A DNA stretch of 62,999 bases, the filler included, from Rhabdomonas costata (Eukaryota): NCBI GenBank assembly GCA_019059605.1. It is 40 parts of 40 records of this genome, joined end to end, with 100 filler letters (N's around TTAATTAATTAA, not from the genome) between each part and the next. Parts side by side here need not be neighbours in the genome. Positions count along the whole stretch, not along the records: positions 39,447 to 40,924 come from JAHMHO010014917.1; positions 41,025 to 42,501 come from JAHMHO010014918.1; positions 42,602 to 44,078 come from JAHMHO010014919.1; 37 more parts are not named here. The stretch is one strand, 5' to 3'. This document shows positions 1,579 through 42,749 of the stretch, piece by piece. The position numbers and the translations under genes are program-made. The notes under the pieces were generated by a model, which had not been told where the DNA came from, ran no database searches, and saw only the letters and a list, made by a program, of their open reading frames with translations. Position 1 is the first letter of the stretch, and each line of letters starts with the position of its first letter.

Positions 1579-4500
1579 GTGGTGGAGGATCGGCACAGGT
1601 TGCTCAACTTCACATACTGAGGTGTTATCGCGTTGTGGTGGAGCGAGCAGTGTCATCAGGCCACATGTTGGCCAAGTTGGTGTGATCCCATTCATCCAGA
1701 GACACAACACTATAGCGTACATGCCATGGTAGGAACGTAGGGGCATGGTTAACCTATCACTACTACTCTGTGTGTTAGAATATGGTGTTGAGGTAGGGCG
1801 TAGGGTGTTGGTACCAATATGTATGCTGCCGATGTACAGTGTGGTAACCTGGGTGTGTCATCCCGTACCCAACCTCAATGTCATGTGGTGGTAGTGGCAT
1901 CGGTGTACCTTACGTTAGTCTGTGCGTAGGTTAGGTCATGCTGTTATCATCCGCTGGTTGTCATGTGCAGCGTACCTCATTCGTTGGTGGTTATGCATCG
2001 AGTGGTTAGGCATCGGCTGTCTACCACACTGTGTGTGATCCTACCGATACTACCGTTGAAGCGACGTTGTTTGTGATCATCAGGTGGTCGTTGCGATGTT
2101 GGCAACCCAGCGAAAGCCCAACATCATACCCAGTCACAACAAAGCAAACCATTAGTCTGTGTGGTGCACATTTGCTACGCTCATGTTCCCCCTAGGTTGT
2201 CACACTCGGTCGCGTTGCTCACTCATGTTCATCCCGACTTCACATTCACTCCTTGCTACGCTCCTGTTCCTCTGCACTTGATCTGTGGTACCAAAAGGTC
2301 TTGGAGCAGCACAAAGGACGAATCCCCAGATTCTCACACCGACCCACCAAGTAATGCGGAGGAATTTCCACAGCTATGCCTGCAGGTGTTGAGTTTTTAC
2401 CTTACTTTTCTTTTGCAATGAGTGCTCGTGATAAGGTGATGTTTTCCACACTGGCACACAAGCATTGGAACTTAACTGATGTCCATATCATGTCAGTATG
2501 AGTATTAAGACACTTTTCCACTCACACATCATCACATTCAGCGGAAAAATGCCCATTAAGACGATGCACAAGCGCCTCCAGGCCCACCCACGACACCTGG
2601 CTTCTTCCCGCTGTACCACGCCAAGACGAACAACATCCCACCATGGAGGGTGTCTACGACCGACATTGCATCCGCAGCAGCAGTCGCATCAGAACACGTT
2701 AAACCAGTCTTCTAGCCCATTATCGTGACTACTGACATGAATAAAGCCAAATTCCGTATCAAAGCATTTGTGGCACCTACAAACAACCGGTCAGTGTGCC
2801 CATTACCACCAAGTGGACTCACCTCCTCCACCTTTTCCCCGAAGACTGCAGTTAGTCCGCAGGATAACTTTCACTCTCTGCTGACACATGCACAACATTT
2901 CTCCACGTGTCCTGGTTGTTGCCTCGCCTCAGCGTGTGATCCGGCAAGTCACACGAGCAGCAGGTACCAGCGATGTAGCTGGACATTGAACAGAAGGCCC
3001 AACCATTCTCTACCCTCCATCTTCCGTCACGAAACCTCAGAAGATGGCACCACCACANNNNNNNNNNNNNNNNNNNNNNNNNNNNNNNNNNNNNNNNNNN
3101 NTTAATTAATTAANNNNNNNNNNNNNNNNNNNNNNNNNNNNNNNNNNNNNNNNNNNNTGTTGGTTGTTTTGCCCGAATGCCGAATCACGCCTATTTTGTT
3201 ACATGCTCTTTCGTGTGCGACGTTGCATGTCCCTTTGGCGGTTCCTTACGTGCTCGAAGCACGTGTGTATTAGTTTTTCCTGCGGTTTCCTGCGGTATTG
3301 TTGGTTTAGCACTTGGGCACTTTCCATGGTGGGTTTCCCCTTCTCACCTTCGGCGGGACACGGGCCAAACCATTGGGTGTTAATGACAGGAGGAATCTTC
3401 TCCTTTCTCTCCTTTTTGGCACAGCTTCATTCTGCCCTCTGCCGTTCTGCCTTCAGATTGCCGAAGCACCTGTGGGGTTCTCTGCTGACCGCCGGGGCCT
3501 CAGGCAGGCAGCGCGCCGTGGAGTCGATTCTCGCTCAGCTTCGGAGAGTAGGGGAGGCCCGTCGCATGGTACCTCACTCCTCTGTGCATCACCCCACCCT
3601 CACCCTCCCGTTCCAACCGTTGAGGTGTGGTCCCCTCCATCGTTTCTCGAGCCCCGAGAAATGCCAGTCGACTCACACGAGGAAGATACGTTGCAGCGCC
3701 TGGCGCACGTGCCCCGTAATTTGTGGTGAATCTGTGGGCCCCTGGCCTTGTTTCGATCGTATTTGCTTAGTGCCCTCATTTTCCCACTCAAATGAGAAGC
3801 CAGCGATGCGGCCACAGATGGGCACTGAGGGCGATTAGGGATGGTATCGTCCATGTGGTGAATCATGGCGGGTGGCTGCGGAATGCGGAATGTGGTGTGG
3901 GGTTTTCTGTTGCCTTCGTGTGCAGCTTCGTCACCTCTTCGGTTTCGGGGATGATGTGCTGAGGGAGCCGAGCGTTCCATGCCCACAATTCCCGATTTCG
4001 GGTGTGACTTGCCGCTGCTATTCTTTTGCGGTTATCAGTGTGAGCAGTTTTGGTTGTGCCTCGCTCTGCGGTGTGGTTTTTGTACGGTTTTGAGCAGCAG
4101 AAACGGGAATAGGGATGCCGCTTACCCAAGTTGAGCGCTCCTTCCAATGCGCTTCCATTTATGGTATTGAGGTGTTTTTTGCTCGCGTCTGTGGCGGTGT
4201 TTGAGGTGATGGGTCGGGTTGAATTTTGTGGCGCATGCGTTGCTCCTTGTCGCCGGGCGGCTGCTCTCTGCTCCAAGATTATTAGTGTGCCGATAAATTG
4301 CTGAGCTATCGACCTCTGCTCCAAAGCCGCGGCGGAACAAGAAGCTTCCCTCTCTGGTTCGTTATGATGGGTTGTTTCTGTGGCGGATCACAACGCGCTC
4401 TAAATAGCAGTCCCAGGGCGGTGCCACAACCCCCACTCTCTTGCCCTCCAATCCATACGGCTGCCTTCTTCTCTGCTCACAGCTTCGCAGTCCTTGCTCA

Positions 4501-9652: not shown

Positions 9653-10133
9653 CTTGACAATTTTGTCGCAAAGCGCGGCCATGGTTTCCGCCTTGGTGCA
9701 GTCCGCCTCATAGGAGTGAGCGGTGCCTCCAACAGAACGAATGCCCGACTCCACGCCCGGCAACGTCCCGTCAGGAAGAGCCACGAGAACCACCTTTGCC
9801 CCTGTGCAAATGAAAATTGCAAGAACCCCTTACACTCGGTCATAACAAGAATGTGTGGCCACACATAACCTAACCCATTGACCCAACTCATTGACACGAT
9901 GTGCGGTATAGTTTGGCCTCAGCCGCTACCTCCTCTCCAGAGGGCTTGGCTTTTGGTCCCACACAGAAGTACAGCATCTCCCACAGCAGCAGCAGCAGCA
10001 GGGGAGATAGAACTCATTGGGAGAAAAGAATTATCTTGCAATTTGTTGCAGTATTTTTTAGCCAAAAAAAAATGGGGGAAGGCACGTGCCGCATCTTTCG
10101 GTTTTACAATACTTTGTAATTGCTAAAAAAAAA

Positions 10134-10193
<60 letters not shown>

Positions 10194-10515
10194 CTGGCCC
10201 TGACACGTATGGTCCAATCCAAGTACCAATACCACCTTTCTTGGAAGCTCCTGCTGATTGCAAGTGTCCCGTCATCCATATCCCCCGCATCCATCCGCAT
10301 CCACGTGTGGTAGGGACAGTAGCTTGACACCTTCCTCCTTCCACACCTTTGGCAGCCAGCAACTCTGCCGTGCACTTGCCAATGCCACTGGAAGCCCCAG
10401 TAATCAGCGCAAGTTTACCGTCCACGGGGTAGTGCTTGGGGTAGAAGTTCTGGTACGCCGCGTGAGCCACACCCAGGCCCACAACCACGCCCATGACCCG
10501 GGTAAACTTTCCCAT
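9653..10515 (-). CDS. Short-chain dehydrogenase/reductase with N-terminal hydrophobic anchor (exons 10515-10347, 9801-9653)
   Basis: LALITGASSGIG Rossmann motif. A phase-1 GTGTG..CAG intron joins LAAK-G-AKVVLVA..SYEADCT; the next donor is GTGCG at 9652. Confidence 0.9.
10133..10192 (+). repeat. (AAAG)15 microsatellite in SDR intron 1
   Basis: Perfect tandem array preceded by an A run. Confidence 0.95.
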
Positions 10516-12309
10516 TGGGATGCACTGAAAAGGGGTGGGCGACTCAGAAACGGTGCACAAACTCCAAATGGATTTGCGTAAAAGCCACGAAAATCGCGCC
10601 GCTGAAGCGCGGTTCGGTTCTGAAAATGAAATCGAAATGCAAAGGGCGATAATCACAAGTGAGCATCTTGTATGGCAACACAGCGACCTGACAATGCATG
10701 CACAAGAAGGCCTCCTTCCTCGTTCGGATGTGCCATCAGCCAAGCACTTTGGTGGGTTCCTTTGAGCCAAAGCGTTCCTATATAAAGCTGGGTGGCCGCG
10801 GGCATTTTGACACTGAAAGAGGTAGCCGTTGCGGCGTTAAGTTCATCTTTCCTTGGAGGGCTTTGAGTCTTGGAGGTTGAAGACGGTGCCAAGGGGAGCC
10901 ATGTATGAATTTGACTTTCGACACTTTCGACCAATTGTCCCACCCCAACNNNNNNNNNNNNNNNNNNNNNNNNNNNNNNNNNNNNNNNNNNNNTTAATTA
11001 ATTAANNNNNNNNNNNNNNNNNNNNNNNNNNNNNNNNNNNNNNNNNNNNCAAGTTTTTACACACTCTTCTCCCATCCCTCAATCCCGTATTTTCCTAATT
11101 CCGAAGTGGAACGTGGAGCCTGTTTGATTGCTTCATCGTCATTGTCGCCGTCTCCACAAAGCCAGTGAAGTAGGTAATGTAGAACGCACAGCTGGACGCC
11201 TAAGGCAGGCCCTTCCCCGCTCCATTTCCCGTTTTGTATTTCAGGCTTGGGCCGACAAGGCGGCGAGCTCCCGGGGGAGGTTCCGGGGTGTGGCGGGCAC
11301 CACGGGGGGCCTGCCCACGCAGCAGACCCGTGGCCCTTCTACGGGGGTGGGCTTCCAGGCGGGCCGTGGGAAGCCCCTGTAAGGGAGAGAGCTTACAATG
11401 GCCCTAACCAAAATGAGAGATAAAAAAGCTAGCCAATGGGCTCTCCCAGAGTCGGTCAGAGGTTCACCATAAATGCAACTCCCCGTTTTGTTGGGGGGTT
11501 GGGTGGATGGGGTTGGGTTAAGTTGGGCTGAGTTCGTTTCCTGTGCGGTGTGGCTTTCCGGTGTTCTGTTTTCTTCTGTGGCGGCGCGGTGGTGTGCACT
11601 GTCTTCCTTGCGGGCATGGCATTCCCGTTGTCTGCCACAGATTCGGACGTATCTTTGCCTTCCTGACCTCTAATTTCCCTGGCTTTTGGCCCTTAGGGTT
11701 TTGTGTCGCGTGTATTAGCGAGGGACAACGTGCTGCTGCTGCTTGAGGTGGGTTTTTTCTGACCAAACTGAAGATATCCTTTCATCTTGCATATCATCCA
11801 TTTGGCCGTGGACACTGCTCTTATCCATCCATTTACCAAGCCGTAACACTGACGATTTTAGCTGGACGTTCTTTACTTATATTTGTCACATTAGGGGCAA
11901 AAAAAATTTGTGCGGTGCCGAGCTTCCATTTTCTTGTGTCCCATTTCCAAAAGAAAAAAAAACACGGAAATTATTGTGTGTGCAGGCGCATGGTGCATGG
12001 TGCATCTCGGATCTTCAGTTGAGACATTTTTGTCCCGTCATTATTATAGTGGTGAAATTCCCGCCTCTTCTGCGATGGCACCCTCGGTGTGTGAGGAAGT
12101 TAGGGATAGTGAGCGTGTGCGCATCTGAACGATGAACGCGAAGGTTTTACCGGCGCAGGCCGTGCCTTTCTCCCTCTGCTGGGCCTTTTCCTACGCTCTG
12201 CATAGTACCCGGGTGTGCATAGTACCCAGTGCCACGGCAGACCCACGGAATCCTACCGTTGTGTCCTCTGCCGCACGGGTAACGCTATTGCGCGCAACCA
12301 TTAAGTGGG

Positions 12310-28539: not shown

Positions 28540-29884
28540 AGGTGGAGTCTCAAGCACGACCCCGGCCACCAGAGGCTGCTTAAGCCGCTGTACCGTCGCC
28601 TGTTCAGCTACGCTCAGCACCCCAACCTATGGAAACGCCTGGGCGCCGCGTTGGCGTTCAACCGCCTTCACCGCGAGTTCAGGGAGGTGGATCAGGTCGG
28701 CATCTTCTCTTCTCGTTCTGCTCTCTGTCTTTCAATCTCTCCCTTGGCCTCCCCATAAACGTTCCGATCCTTTCCTGTTTGTGTTTTTTGTTGATTAATT
28801 CCTTGTCATCCCGCAGCTGGTCGACTTGCACACCCTGGAGCTTCTGTACAACGCTGTTGTCTCTCTGGCCTTCTCGGGGGCCGAAGAGCCCCTCCGTGGG
28901 CTCTCAGCCCTGGCGTCCACAACCTCCTCCTTTGCAGCTTCTGCCAGCGCTGCCACCACAACGGCGCAGTGGGTGGATTTTCTGGGCCGCCTGGAGAGGC
29001 TGATTGTTGTGAAGGCCTCAGTTCTGTGCACTCCCAACCCCTCCCGCGGTCGCCTCGCTGACCTTCCGTCAGCGGTGGAGTGGCTGTTCCAACAGTGTGG
29101 GCGAGTTGAGCGGGCGTGCCGCAGCCAATGCATGCGGCTGTTCGTCAGCTTTACCTGTGCCATGGCCCCGACTCCCGAGGCGGTCGCTGAGGCTCCTCGG
29201 TGGTGGCTGCAGACGAAGCTGCAAAAGGATGCGCTTGTGGTGCGGCAAATGTGTGAGAGGTTCACTCAGCCGCTGCCGGAGAACCTCTCCGCGCTGGCCC
29301 ATGTCAACCTCCCTGCCTACCTGGCCTGGGCCAGGCAGCTGCAGCAGTGCCTGCACACCTACACCTGGGTCTTCAGCCAGCGCTTTCTGTTTCCTCATCA
29401 GGTTCGCAGGGTATAGGGGAGTGGGCGAGTGTAGTTTCGGCTCTTGTCAGGGTGCTTTTTGGGAACCGTCTGCATCATTTTTGCACAATAATTTCCCGAA
29501 GTGGATGAGAATGATGGGTTCAACTTTCACCGCATTGTATGGGAAGCAGAATTGTGTTCTTCTTATTTACCCCTCCATCCTGACTTCGCGTCACCTCTTT
29601 TCCAGCGCACCTGCACCTTTCTTGCTTTATCGGTTCTTTCCCGCCCCATTCAGTGATCCGCTCCTATCTTGACGGTTTTTTCTGCTTCGACTTGCTCATC
29701 AGCGGGCATCCGCTTCTTCTCTTTCTCGCAGGCCTTCCAAGGACTTTGCGAGGAGGGTACTGAAAACCCCTGTGGCCCTCCCGCGAAGAAACCGAGGCAG
29801 GTCGCCAGCCGCAGTGCAGAGCCCTCGAGCCCCCTGCCCTCGGCTGTGCTGCAGCACCTCTTCTACTTCGCCCACCACACCACA
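28540..29884 (+). CDS. PRKDC: DNA-dependent protein kinase catalytic subunit, HEAT region (exons 28540-28695, 28817-29401, 29732-contig end)
   Basis: RWSLKH..LYRRLFSYAQHPNLWKRLGAALAFNRLHREFRE..|LV..VEWLFQQCGRVERACRSQCMRLF matches DNA-PKcs [54 protein letters not shown]. Confidence 0.92.
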
Positions 29885-39446: not shown

Positions 39447-39771
39447 TAAATCTGCTCATTAGTGCTTCAATTTTATCTTTTAATACGGTGTATTCACCTT
39501 CGTATTGTTCAAATCGTCTTACTGAATCAGATTTAAGGTAATTGCAGCATCGTTCACAATAAAAATCAGATGTTGGGCGACCTCTATAATTATAACCGAA
39601 TATTTCGCTATCTTCTGATGCGTTTTTATCTGAAAATATTTTGAATTCTTTATTATCTATCATATAAACTGATGAACAATGAAAACAGTATCTTACTTTA
39701 CATGTCATACAATAAAAACTATCGTTGATGTTAACACATTTATTACATAATGGACAGTGAATTATTATCAT
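39447..39771 (-). CDS. Cys-rich, probable zinc-binding hypothetical protein from the AT-rich foreign contig (3' truncated)
   Basis: Intronless, A/T-ending codons, with CPLC..C, CMTC, CFHC and CERC clusters. Starts at TATAATG, 37 bp after the previous stop. Confidence 0.75.
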
Positions 39772-39808
39772 TATAATAATACTATATTTTAATAATTTAA
39801 GTTTCTTC

Positions 39809-40123
39809 TTATTGAACTGGAATAATAAATTCAGTTGAACATTTACAAATACCTAATGAAACACCATCAGATGACTCTACCTTTTGTTTTTTATTCTTAA
39901 TATACTCATTAACATTATGTTTTATGTCATCTAACTTGCGCATTGCATCATATGCTATATCACGTTTTGTTTGATGTATATAATCTTCAATATCTTTATC
40001 GTTTTTAATATTATCAAGATGAACATAAAGAGCACTGTACGATATTTCATGTTCAAATGACTCATCTTGTTTATTTTTAATTTCTTTATTTAAAACACTA
40101 ATAAGATTTTCCAATGGTTCCAT
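39809..40123 (-). CDS. 104-aa charged helical hypothetical protein from the AT-rich foreign contig
   Basis: Long ORF in very AT-rich DNA, rich in K/N/I/D/E, starting at TATAATG. Confidence 0.72.
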   Translation of the reverse strand: MEPLENLISVLNKEIKNKQDESFEHEISYSALYVHLDNIKNDKDIEDYIHQTKRDIAYDAMRKLDDIKHNVNEYIKNKKQKVESSDGVSLGICKCSTEFIIPVQ

Positions 40124-40920
40124 TATATAATTATTATATAATTTTTTTAATAAATTATACAAAAATATCCTAGTATGCGCTATAAATTATGGCTGGACTG
40201 GGTGGTATTATGCGCTGGATATTATGGATGGACTGGTAGTAGCATGTGCTAGAGATTATGGACGGGTTGGGTGGTATTATGTGCTAGATATTATGAATGG
40301 ACTGGGTGGTATTATGATGAGACCATACAGACCTATTAAAAATGTTCGGAGACAGAAAAAGAGCTGATATGGTGTGTATACAGAATTGTTTTGAAATTAT
40401 TACTTATATTAAGACCAGGAAGACCTCCTAAAAATGGTCGGAGAGTTAGAGTGAGCTACTCTGATCTGCTACTATATTCTTTTGAATGTGCGGCATGGTG
40501 GTGCTACTACTACTAATACTAATATCTATATATATAGTAGATAGATATATATAGTAGATATAGTATATATAGTAGATAGTATAGTAGTATAGCAATATGT
40601 GAGCACCGTCCCATTTTTACGAAGCCTGCGGCTTCGGAAAACTGGGACGTTGCGCACATATTGCGTTCACTTTCATTCGCCGCCGCGCCGCCATCATTAG
40701 ACTATCTGTTTGAGAGAGAACCGCTAAACTGACTGTTCAGTACAAGTTAAATACCACCCATAATATCCAGCGCATAATACCACCCAAACTATCCATAATA
40801 TCCAGTGCATGATATCACCCAGTCAAGTCATAATCTCTAGCGCATACTACGATATTTTTGTATAATTTATTAAAAAAATTATATAATAATTATATAATTT
40901 TTTTAATAAATTATACAAAC
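40122..40920. repeat. Diverged inverted arms containing ~35-bp tandem repeats around a palindrome/hairpin core
   Basis: Left arm ~40122-40316 has units starting at 40186, 40221, 40255 and 40290 (consensus ATTATGGATGGACTGGGTGGTATTATGCGCTGGAT). Right arm ~40759-40898 carries the same units in reverse orientation. Confidence 0.9.
40592..40664. other. 35-bp stem, 3-nt loop hairpin
   Basis: GCAATATGTG-a-GCA-c-CGTCCCA-t-TTTT-a-CGAAGCC [tgc] GGCTTCG-g-AAAA-c-TGGGACG-t-TGC-g-CACATATTGC, with four isolated mismatches. Confidence 0.9.
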
Positions 40921-42749
40921 ACAANNNNNNNNNNNNNNNNNNNNNNNNNNNNNNNNNNNNNNNNNNNNTTAATTAATTAANNNNNNNNNNNNNNNNNNNN
41001 NNNNNNNNNNNNNNNNNNNNNNNNAATATCGGTAAAAACTTCCCTATTCAACGCGGTGAGGAAGTGGGTTATACTGGCAATTGATAACAAATGATGGAAG
41101 TTCTGGACATTAACAAAATGCACTGCGGTTGGAAGTACGAAAAGAATTATATTAGAGATAACTATCGCTAAAATAGCGAGAATCCCAAGTGCTTGTGACC
41201 ACTCACTGCGGGGTTTTTTGTCATCATCAGTTATGACCAGACCAATTGTTCTACAAGCCACACAGGGCCTTGGGATCAAGCTGTACTCACTGCATCCAAA
41301 TGAGATGCACGAGTGGCTCTGAGAACTTCAACAAGTAAATATTTTGCCCTTTCTGCTAGAAACATCTCCACAAAACAGCTAGCACCAGACACTTATGAAT
41401 GTTCAGTCATAAAAAGGCAGTTCCCATTATGTGCGCCTCCACCATAAGTTGGCACTTGCACCAGTCAGCGTCCCGGTAAGCGAGACCCACGTCAACGCAG
41501 CTACGCGGAAGCCCATCAACACCACTCCGCGCAATTATCTTGGAGCCATCTGAACCCAATTAAGGAACACAATCCACGTTTGTGTGGATTCAGCACTTGC
41601 AGCGGAAGTGCCAACGCTCCGACAACAAGAAATCAAGTGAGCAGAACTTGAATCACAAGTACACGCCACACCACAACGTTCCATGACGCACTGTGTGTAT
41701 GTGCGTAAGTGCGTGTGTGTATTGGTCCGCGTGCCGCCACAGTGTATGACCTGTTGTGCGCATCTCTCTGGATCAGCGCATCATCTCCTCTTTTGATCGA
41801 GCCAGTTGGTGGTGGTGTTCCATATTTTACAAAGAGCTAACACAACTCCGGCGTGAAATCCGAGCAGAGGCTAACGCACGCCGCTTTCTCTCAGCTCTTC
41901 ACGTGCCACATGGTTCCAGACGCACACACATGCATCGTGCATGATACTAACATCACGGCACAAGCATGCTACCCACGCCGTGCCTTCATTTGCATACCAC
42001 AGAAACCTTTTCCTTGTGCGTGTATTTGTGTATATGTGTTTGCTAGTGTATGGTTGTGTATTTGTTTCAGCAAAGGCACACACAATCATCAAATCCGGCT
42101 GTTAGTATCAGGCTTAGGTCACAATTTATTATTGTGCAGCTACTTGATATACTGCCTCCAAATCGGTGACAACACTGGTAAGTTTCAATTGTATTACGTG
42201 CGGTTGTACGTGCGGTTTTTGGTCGGTCTAGAAAAGGTAGACGTTTTCAGCGTCTTTTGTGCTTATCTCCAAATTGTCTTCTTCTTTTAGTATTTGCAAT
42301 GCTAGTGTTGTTTCTGAACGTCACCTCTGTTTTATGCCATAAGGCCCAGCTGGAATTTCTTCCAAACTAACTGTCGCTTTTGATGTTAAAACCACGAAAA
42401 AATAGTCACGGGATAGTAATACCAGCTAATGTACAGCTAACTTATAACAACTGCAATTGTTTACTGTGCAATTTTCAAAACGCACTGAAGCACGAAAACA
42501 ANNNNNNNNNNNNNNNNNNNNNNNNNNNNNNNNNNNNNNNNNNNNTTAATTAATTAANNNNNNNNNNNNNNNNNNNNNNNNNNNNNNNNNNNNNNNNNNN
42601 NTGAGGGGAATTGGGGAAGTCATCCAGCCTCCTCGAGGTATTTATTGTAGGAAAAAGCTGGAACCGCCCCCCGGGAGCACGAAGATGACTAGCTGTTACA
42701 GTGGTCAGCCAAGTTGCGCAAGGATCCTATTACAAGGGTACGCTCCCCT

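Follow-up and report, generated by a model that had tools for sequence, protein, structure and literature searches.

Which kind of element does a short, AT-rich contig represent when it turns up in a draft assembly of a much more GC-rich eukaryote? This question is raised by positions 39447-40924 of the stretch of Rhabdomonas costata DNA analysed here, referred to below as the window, which is 62,999 nucleotides (nt) long and is not one locus: it consists of 40 contigs of 1475-1479 nt each, joined via N/TTAATTAATTAA spacers, and 39447-40924 coincides exactly with one whole contig. This contig is foreign in composition to the contigs of about 53% GC (G+C content) around it. It carries two genuine protein-coding genes, open reading frames (ORFs) A and B, next to a fold-back non-coding module, and ORF A belongs to a conserved, unnamed protein family that is otherwise found in metagenomes only. 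Our tentative interpretation, to which we give somewhat less than an even chance, is that we are looking at part of an AT-rich, gene-dense replicon of uncharacterised lineage, virus- or plasmid-like, associated with a eukaryote but not part of the host, and co-assembled with the nuclear genome of about 53% GC.

The contrast in composition is large. GC content is 0.307 in the AT-rich contig versus 0.448-0.628 in the other 39 (mean 0.531, standard deviation 0.032), which corresponds to z = -7.0. Its tetranucleotide profile correlates negatively with the mean of the others (r = -0.24), each of which yields 0.38-0.88, and the observed/expected ratio of CpG is 1.0 versus 0.77 in the others. The latter have a eukaryotic nuclear look and a low coding density, and blastn of the AT-rich contig against all 39 of them showed no similarity. 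An earlier note, made from the sequence alone, had singled out this contig as far more AT-rich than any other and had proposed to compare GC and tetranucleotide usage; both measures set the contig apart. Its gene-bearing part is organized as follows:

39447-39771, minus strand: ORF A, 108 codons, truncated at its 3' end by the contig edge; from translation.
39772-39808, minus strand: spacer between ORF A and ORF B, 37 nt, about 10% GC, with TATA directly before the ATG of ORF A.
39809-40123, minus strand: ORF B, 104 codons (39812-40123) plus a TAA stop (39809-39811); from translation.

That both frames are genes is shown by their length and their codon structure. Two open frames this long were obtained in none of 2000 mononucleotide shuffles, and one frame of at least 108 codons in 60 of the 2000. 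Since stops make up 7.4% of all codon positions in this 31% GC contig, a 104-codon open frame is expected by chance at a rate of about 3e-4 per position. In ORF B the three codon positions have a GC of 0.44/0.20/0.135 (chi2 28.3, p 7e-7), in ORF A one of 0.32/0.34/0.19 (p 0.03), and the non-coding module displays no period-3 GC (p 0.27). Concerning alternative genetic codes, reading TGA as Trp or Cys reveals no further or longer gene in the contig, while a TAA/TAG=Gln code is uninformative because every frame opens under it. ORF B is an orphan with strong codon periodicity: protein search, an IMG/VR scan and tblastn against phages and plasmids yielded no relatives, and the language-model atlas gave no usable match for it. 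It is predicted to be helical with a Cys-containing C-terminal tail, and its single-sequence AlphaFold2 (AF2) model, with a predicted local distance difference test score (pLDDT) of 61, is too weak for a structure search.

The two genes also share their start context. TATAATG occurs twice in the contig, counting both strands, among 70 ATGs, and both occurrences are ORF starts, so a TATA-type word abuts the ATG of ORF A and of ORF B (TATATAATG and TTATAATG) within spacers of nearly pure A+T. No stable fold was found in the 37-nt spacer at 39772-39808. Neither ATG is preceded by a Shine-Dalgarno-like purine run, sigma-70-like sites in the contig are at chance level (11 found, 11.2 expected), the contig contains no intrinsic terminators, and TATAAT overlaps the ATG and therefore cannot serve as the -10 box for that start. 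The description in the earlier note, i.e. two co-directional, intronless ORFs 37 bp apart, both starting at TATAATG and one of them rich in CxxC pairs, agrees with what is found here in spacing, orientation, start words and the four such pairs of ORF A; "intronless" holds in the sense that the ORFs are continuous, and can be read no further than that.

The CxxC pairs of ORF A lie at residues 6/9, 21/24, 29/32 and 72/75 and provide eight Cys. A HMMER search with this protein against 1.84 billion representatives (E <= 1e-3) gave 8 matches, 6 of which are credible (P0003-P0006, P0008 and P0009; 79-129 aa, 39-44% identity), the relatives having E values from 1.3e-20 to 7.4e-11. The remaining two, P0007 and P0010, were set aside because they are long, internally repetitive and match only about 37 residues. 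These two proteins (456 and 794 aa, respectively) are highly repetitive, Cys/Trp-rich and built on a unit of about 60 aa, and sit on metagenome contigs of 22 kb and 116 kb; their weak match to the C-terminal third of ORF A is probably a chance effect of composition and repetition. Word-index protein searches with the single ORFs returned no matches. Together with cluster members and a profile search, the HMMER matches make up a family of 30 distinct proteins that range from 55 to 134 aa in length. Every one of them derives from a metagenome assembly, either of ENA or of JGI/IMG, and one of the 30 is named, as "hypothetical protein". The longest contig bearing a family member is 3096 nt, and all others have at most 1989 nt.

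For the family alignment ORF A was combined with 17 of the 30 members, leaving out 13 near-identical cluster members (18 sequences in total). Cys24, Tyr71, Glu73 and Cys75 are invariant in it, and Cys21, Cys29, Cys32, Phe46, Ser47, Lys49, Ser55 and Arg63 are conserved in at least 90% of the sequences; Cys6 and Cys72 reach 90% in a 12-sequence alignment. The family shows two forms, a long one of 109-134 aa with a C-terminal helix, to which ORF A belongs minus its last 15-25 residues or so, and a second one of 79 aa that lacks this helix. P0009 is a decayed relative of P0006, with 63% identity over 84 aligned positions and most of the Cys missing. In P0032, a 113-aa protein on a metagenome contig of 1448 nt, a GIY-YIG-like N-terminus replaces the first two zinc knuckles (Pfam E 0.0048, below threshold), which hints that a homing-endonuclease-type gene may recombine with the ORF A family.

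The AF2 model of ORF A obtained with the family alignment (pLDDT 85.4, predicted template modelling score 0.67) consists of a beta domain, residues 1-72, followed by one long helix, residues 73-106. The earlier note had proposed a Foldseek search of the ORFs. For ORF A, Foldseek and VIA-align together yield weak FYVE, PHD, RING and ZAD neighbours, none of them significant: among the 323 PDB matches listed by Foldseek none has E <= 0.001, and a FYVE domain is best (E 0.38). With VIA-align, run on 48,161 chains, nothing reached Z >= 5, PHD and ZAD domains being the best matches (Z 3.7-4.1), and nothing significant was found in the PDB by sequence (best E 0.32). At the Pfam level, the zf_RING-like family (PF25080, gathering threshold 27 bits) scores 19 bits with ORF A and 25 with its best relative (range 14.4-25), and FYVE (PF01363, threshold 27.8 bits) scores 14.6-16 bits with a match that covers all eight Cys. 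The family has no match in NCBIfam and none to a PHROG with a named function; 1 of the 18 family sequences matches an unnamed PHROG (E 0.0077), and ORF B and P0032 have only PHROG matches of unknown function (E 0.025-0.09). Because the structural matches are insignificant and the Pfam scores sub-threshold, the family is kept apart from FYVE, PHD and RING, and on the basis of the model it is described as an unnamed kind of finger, two-zinc and cross-brace-like, that continues into a helical tail.

Beyond the start of ORF B the contig is occupied by the fold-back module, which covers 40122-40919 (about 800 nt) and is composed of inverted arms of 35-nt tandem units around a core, the latter extending for about 420 nt between the arrays. 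The arms, 40122-40236 and 40784-40898, are 115 nt long and 90% complementary. Folded as a single strand, 40100-40924 reaches -186.5 kcal/mol, versus -73.2 +/- 7.7 for shuffles (z = -14.75), so the highly structured non-coding module noticed earlier is real. Its parts are:

40122-40170, no strand assigned: left outer arm segment, 6% GC, with two copies of a self-complementary 10-mer and a T-run/AATAAA-like stretch.
40171-40316, no strand assigned: left array, 4.1 tandem copies of a 35-nt unit, about 42% GC.
40329-40444, plus strand: core part 1, a 24-nt motif in two direct copies starting at 40329 and 40421.
40505-40578, no strand assigned: core part 2, AT-rich and repeating at the short periods of 6 and 9.
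40592-40664, no strand assigned: core part 3, a hairpin whose 35-nt arms are 89% complementary and enclose a 3-nt loop.
40753-40857, no strand assigned: right array, 2.7-3 copies of the 35-nt unit of the left array in inverted orientation.
40857-40919, no strand assigned: right outer segment, a perfect AT-only palindrome of 31+1+31 nt.

The left outer segment stops exactly at the ATG of ORF B and is therefore the entire upstream region of this gene. Over about 48 nt it is identical to an inverted copy on the right, where the inner half of the palindrome repeats the ORF B upstream region in inverted form and is followed by a further inverted half, with no gene start. The palindrome folds at -23.4 kcal/mol (z = -10.8) and the contig ends 5 nt beyond it. 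An assembler fold-back artefact was considered for this end and rejected, since beyond 31 nt the sequence no longer follows a simple read-back. ATTATG is found seven times within 40186-40316. The core hairpin has a DNA fold of -32.8 kcal/mol (z = -10.9) and is followed by a 16-nt tract of G+C only at about 40677-40692. Rfam contains nothing credible for the module; the hairpin matches only a plant miRNA precursor, at chance level (E 0.27), with 20.7 bits where the threshold is 200 bits. The inverted repeat is flanked by GGTTCC and TTTTTT, and these show no target-site duplication.

As a working hypothesis, the module may be the cis-acting control region, origin or promoter, of the element. The AT-only outer segments would be outward-facing promoters, the left one serving ORF B. 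The inverted 35-nt arrays would be iteron-like sites for a DNA-binding protein encoded by the element, with ORF A as the putative candidate, and replication or resolution would begin in the core with its hairpin.

Searches for related elements and for marker genes were largely empty. By Pfam, neither ORF matches one of the hallmarks of the nucleocytoplasmic large DNA viruses, i.e. major capsid protein, family B DNA polymerase, A32 ATPase, VLTF3 or D5 primase-helicase, and the fragment carries none of the virophage and Polinton-like ones (double and single jelly-roll capsids, FtsK-type packaging ATPase, cysteine protease). No relatives of the ORFs were found in 185,579 GTDB prokaryote genomes, one for each species, none of the contig or its ORFs in 50,697 phage records (INPHARED; DNA and tblastn), none in 72,556 plasmid records (DNA and tblastn), and none in scans of JGI metagenome contigs. 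The sole tblastn match among the phages, a Caulobacter phage terminase at E 0.3, was dismissed as chance. Four DNA patterns derived from the repeats, the hairpin and the palindrome found no copies in IMG/VR. Concerning organelles, a tRNA search and Rfam revealed no tRNA and no rRNA fragment on the contig, and Pfam no organellar domain. The dinoflagellate spliced-leader motif is absent from the window. The empty searches of the sequence collections argue only weakly against a prokaryotic or viral origin, because contigs of up to 3 kb are largely excluded from collections of metagenome-assembled genomes and of viral contigs.

Taken together, the tight gene spacing, the TATA-ATG starts, the two relatives of which one carries a GIY-YIG fusion and the other is decayed, and the inverted arrays that surround a hairpin in the manner of iterons look most like a selfish replicon. 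The modelled zinc domain of ORF A would be of the cross-brace-like kind typical of eukaryotes and of eukaryotic viruses, and its FYVE, PHD, RING and ZAD neighbours give a weak but consistent signal in this direction; the GIY-YIG-like N-terminus of P0032 and the decay of P0009 would add a mobile or viral flavour. The proposal of the earlier note, a virus- or plasmid-like element, is supported as far as foreign composition, real genes, metagenome-only relatives, the zinc domain and TATA-before-ATG are concerned, and a specific class is not. None of the findings that the note lists as refuting, namely a match to an ordinary contaminant chromosome, bacterial or eukaryotic, or to host mitochondrial DNA, turned up in these searches, and each of these origins keeps some probability.

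Several observations weigh against such a replicon. No virus, plasmid or transposon hallmark is present on the 1.5-kb fragment by Pfam, PHROGs and NCBIfam, in line with the earlier remark that no hallmark gene is visible. Six protein-based scans of IMG/VR found no relatives, and among at least 500 matches counted in the viral models of BFVD none has E <= 0.001 (best E 0.35). The language-model atlas places ORF A nearest to unnamed, mostly Uroviricota (phage) clusters, at 0.88, a score below its trust level; all leads for ORF A fall below 0.9. The short contigs of the relatives may merely reflect low coverage, the promoter resemblance concerns two ORFs only, in spacers that are almost pure A+T, and the binding of ORF A to DNA or to the repeats is something we infer.

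Best surviving among the alternatives is a piece of a contaminating AT-rich microbial eukaryote, nuclear, nucleomorph-like or organellar, for example from a ciliate or from a protist without a reference proteome, which we regard as unlikely while leaving it an appreciable chance. The metagenome relatives would then be the same gene family in related uncultured eukaryotes, and their confinement to short contigs is what eukaryotes at low coverage would give. Cross-brace-like zinc fingers are mainly eukaryotic, which the weak FYVE/PHD/RING matches fit, and the lack of the family in the prokaryote genomes, IMG/VR, phages and plasmids searched points the same way, as does the lack of a mobile-element hallmark on the fragment. 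However, a 37-nt gene spacing beside an 800-nt fold-back built of repeats is unusual for nuclear genes, and a telomere repeat is present at neither end of the contig. For a ciliate code, both ORFs encode glutamine within frames closed by standard stops, and for a contaminant organelle, marker tRNA or rRNA genes are missing.

An AT-rich bacteriophage, or a bacterium living with the sequenced organism, appears distinctly unlikely. In its favour can be counted the mostly Uroviricota clusters of the atlas, although at a score below the trust level, the GIY-YIG fusion of one relative, a feature common in phages, and the small, tightly spaced genes with relatives that are all metagenomic. Against this stand the empty searches of the GTDB, phage, IMG/VR and plasmid collections, the absence of NCBIfam matches and of a PHROG with a named function, and the lack of Shine-Dalgarno-like runs and intrinsic terminators, with sigma-70 sites at chance.

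More doubtful still is the possibility that the contig and its relatives form an undescribed class of AT-rich replicons or satellites that are extrachromosomal, measure no more than about 1.5-3 kb and depend on a helper, a kind of "mini-transpoviron". The coding content of such an element would be limited to a dimeric zinc-finger/coiled-coil protein plus one or two orphans, and a giant virus or the host would help it to replicate from the iteron-flanked fold-back origin and to be transcribed from the TATA-ATG initiators. The sizes of the family contigs, all up to 3.1 kb and most of 0.6-2 kb, would then be those of the true molecules, not a result of poor assembly. If true, it would be smaller than any transpoviron.

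Lowest in our estimate, and improbable, is the host's own DNA, i.e. an unrecognised part of the mitochondrial or plastid genome, a plasmid of one of these organelles, or else a transposon of the fold-back type within nuclear DNA that is locally AT-rich. Organelle genomes and their plasmids are often around 30% GC and gene-dense, with orphan ORFs and palindromic repeats. Yet the contig shows neither organellar genes nor tRNAs or pieces of rRNA, reading TGA as Trp yields no longer gene, and about 40% identity across 30 metagenome variants is unlike fast-evolving organellar orphans. Inverted arms built from tandem repeats are a hallmark of fold-back elements, and the arms seen here are of this type; against a transposon, there is no target-site duplication and no copy in the other 39 contigs, and the whole contig is AT-rich, not the module alone. 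A kinetoplast-type minicircle, to whose universal minicircle sequence the G-rich part of the 35-nt unit bears a loose likeness, was dropped, as a conserved protein family is encoded and exon fragments that end at frame breaks are seen in the host contigs.

In draft assemblies of eukaryotes, a foreign AT-rich contig that stems from an uncultured element is a familiar kind of finding. The ORF A family and the module are, as far as these searches can tell, undescribed in Pfam, NCBIfam, PHROGs, Rfam, PDB and BFVD. Should the sequenced eukaryote be the host of this element, be it a virus, a satellite or a plasmid, the contig offers a handle on an unknown host-parasite pair and, in addition, a small zinc-finger family that is new and comes with a plausible cognate array of repeats. 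A mere contaminant would call for flagging the contig and taking it out of the assembly. In both cases an unnamed family of 30 metagenome proteins gains a confident structural model and a first genomic context.

As for the remainder of the window, the other contigs look eukaryotic judging from two exon-like matches. An open frame at 28799-29413 on the plus strand matches the DNA-PKcs CC1/2 region (Pfam PF20502, E 4.4e-10), a match that marks the bulk of the window as eukaryotic nuclear DNA of a lineage that retains DNA-PKcs. A short-chain dehydrogenase-like exon fragment at 10126-10836 on the minus strand has the N-terminal TGxxxGIG motif of this family (Pfam E 2.9e-4, below threshold); a frame break just past the motif suggests an intron, and a perfect (AAAG)17 microsatellite at 10125-10193 adjoins the fragment. 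The contig at 42602-44078 has the highest GC of all (62.8%) and a tetranucleotide correlation with the rest that is among the lower ones (0.50); long open frames overlap on its two strands, with no Pfam match, and it could be a repeat or retroelement remnant. After the AT-rich contig, the lowest tetranucleotide correlations are those of 1579-3057 and 41025-42501 (0.38 and 0.43, respectively), and the latter has the minimum GC among the host contigs, 44.8%.

Returning to the virus- or plasmid-like replicon that we favour, the known systems to which it can be compared differ in what they share with it. Transpovirons are linear episomes of about 7 kb found with Mimiviridae and pacmanvirus, with terminal inverted repeats of 380-520 nt and a central tandem repeat of 180-600 nt. 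Their genes use the promoters of the helper virus (PMC7031253 and PMC11788076), and their three core genes code for an SF1 helicase, a zinc-finger protein and a conserved unknown protein (PMC7031253). Like them, the contig is AT-rich and densely packed with genes; one of its small ORFs encodes a predicted zinc-binding protein, and tandem as well as inverted repeats are present. It differs in that the fragment has no helicase or other core gene, and in having no match in BFVD or IMG/VR. Within the contig, its inverted repeat lies internally, spans 0.8 kb from one end to the other and directly adjoins the start of a gene, and its tandem repeat consists of 35-nt units inside the arms.

The start context can be compared with the late promoters of AT-rich nucleocytoplasmic viruses. 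According to a review (PMC5294985), African swine fever virus has a late TATATA initiator at -1 to +5 and poxviruses a TAAAT(G/A) that overlaps the initiation site, and TATATA is given as the late motif of a 33% GC pacmanvirus in PMC11788076. The contig likewise has a TATA-type word directly against the ATG, in both ORFs and within A+T spacers. The difference is that two genes only are seen here, and no viral RNA polymerase or transcription factor gene is in view.

Fold-back transposons and miniature inverted-repeat transposable elements show a likeness in the long inverted arms of short tandem units, the non-repetitive core and the strong fold. They differ from the contig in the points of target-site duplication and of a second copy among the other 39 contigs, both missing here; moreover, the outer arm segment also serves as the region directly upstream of ORF B, and the DNA around the module is just as rich in A+T.

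For ORF A, the likeness to FYVE, PHD and RING fingers and to ZAD lies in the eight Cys arranged in four pairs over about 70 residues, the beta domain and the long helix. FYVE domains carry a basic motif of the HHCR type, which in the ORF A family is replaced by V/I-R-Y-C-F/L, and to all of these domains the family differs by the lack of a significant match and by Pfam scores that stay under the gathering thresholds.

Finally, the module invites comparison with the iteron-flanked origins of plasmids and DNA viruses and with the homologous repeat regions of the baculovirus type. The fragment differs from iteron origins in having no replication initiator (Rep) gene, and an origin role would be assigned to the module by analogy. 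The likeness is in the arrangement itself: arrays of short direct repeats in inverted orientation, a core that is AT-rich or bears a hairpin, and the adjoining small gene of a putative DNA-binding protein.

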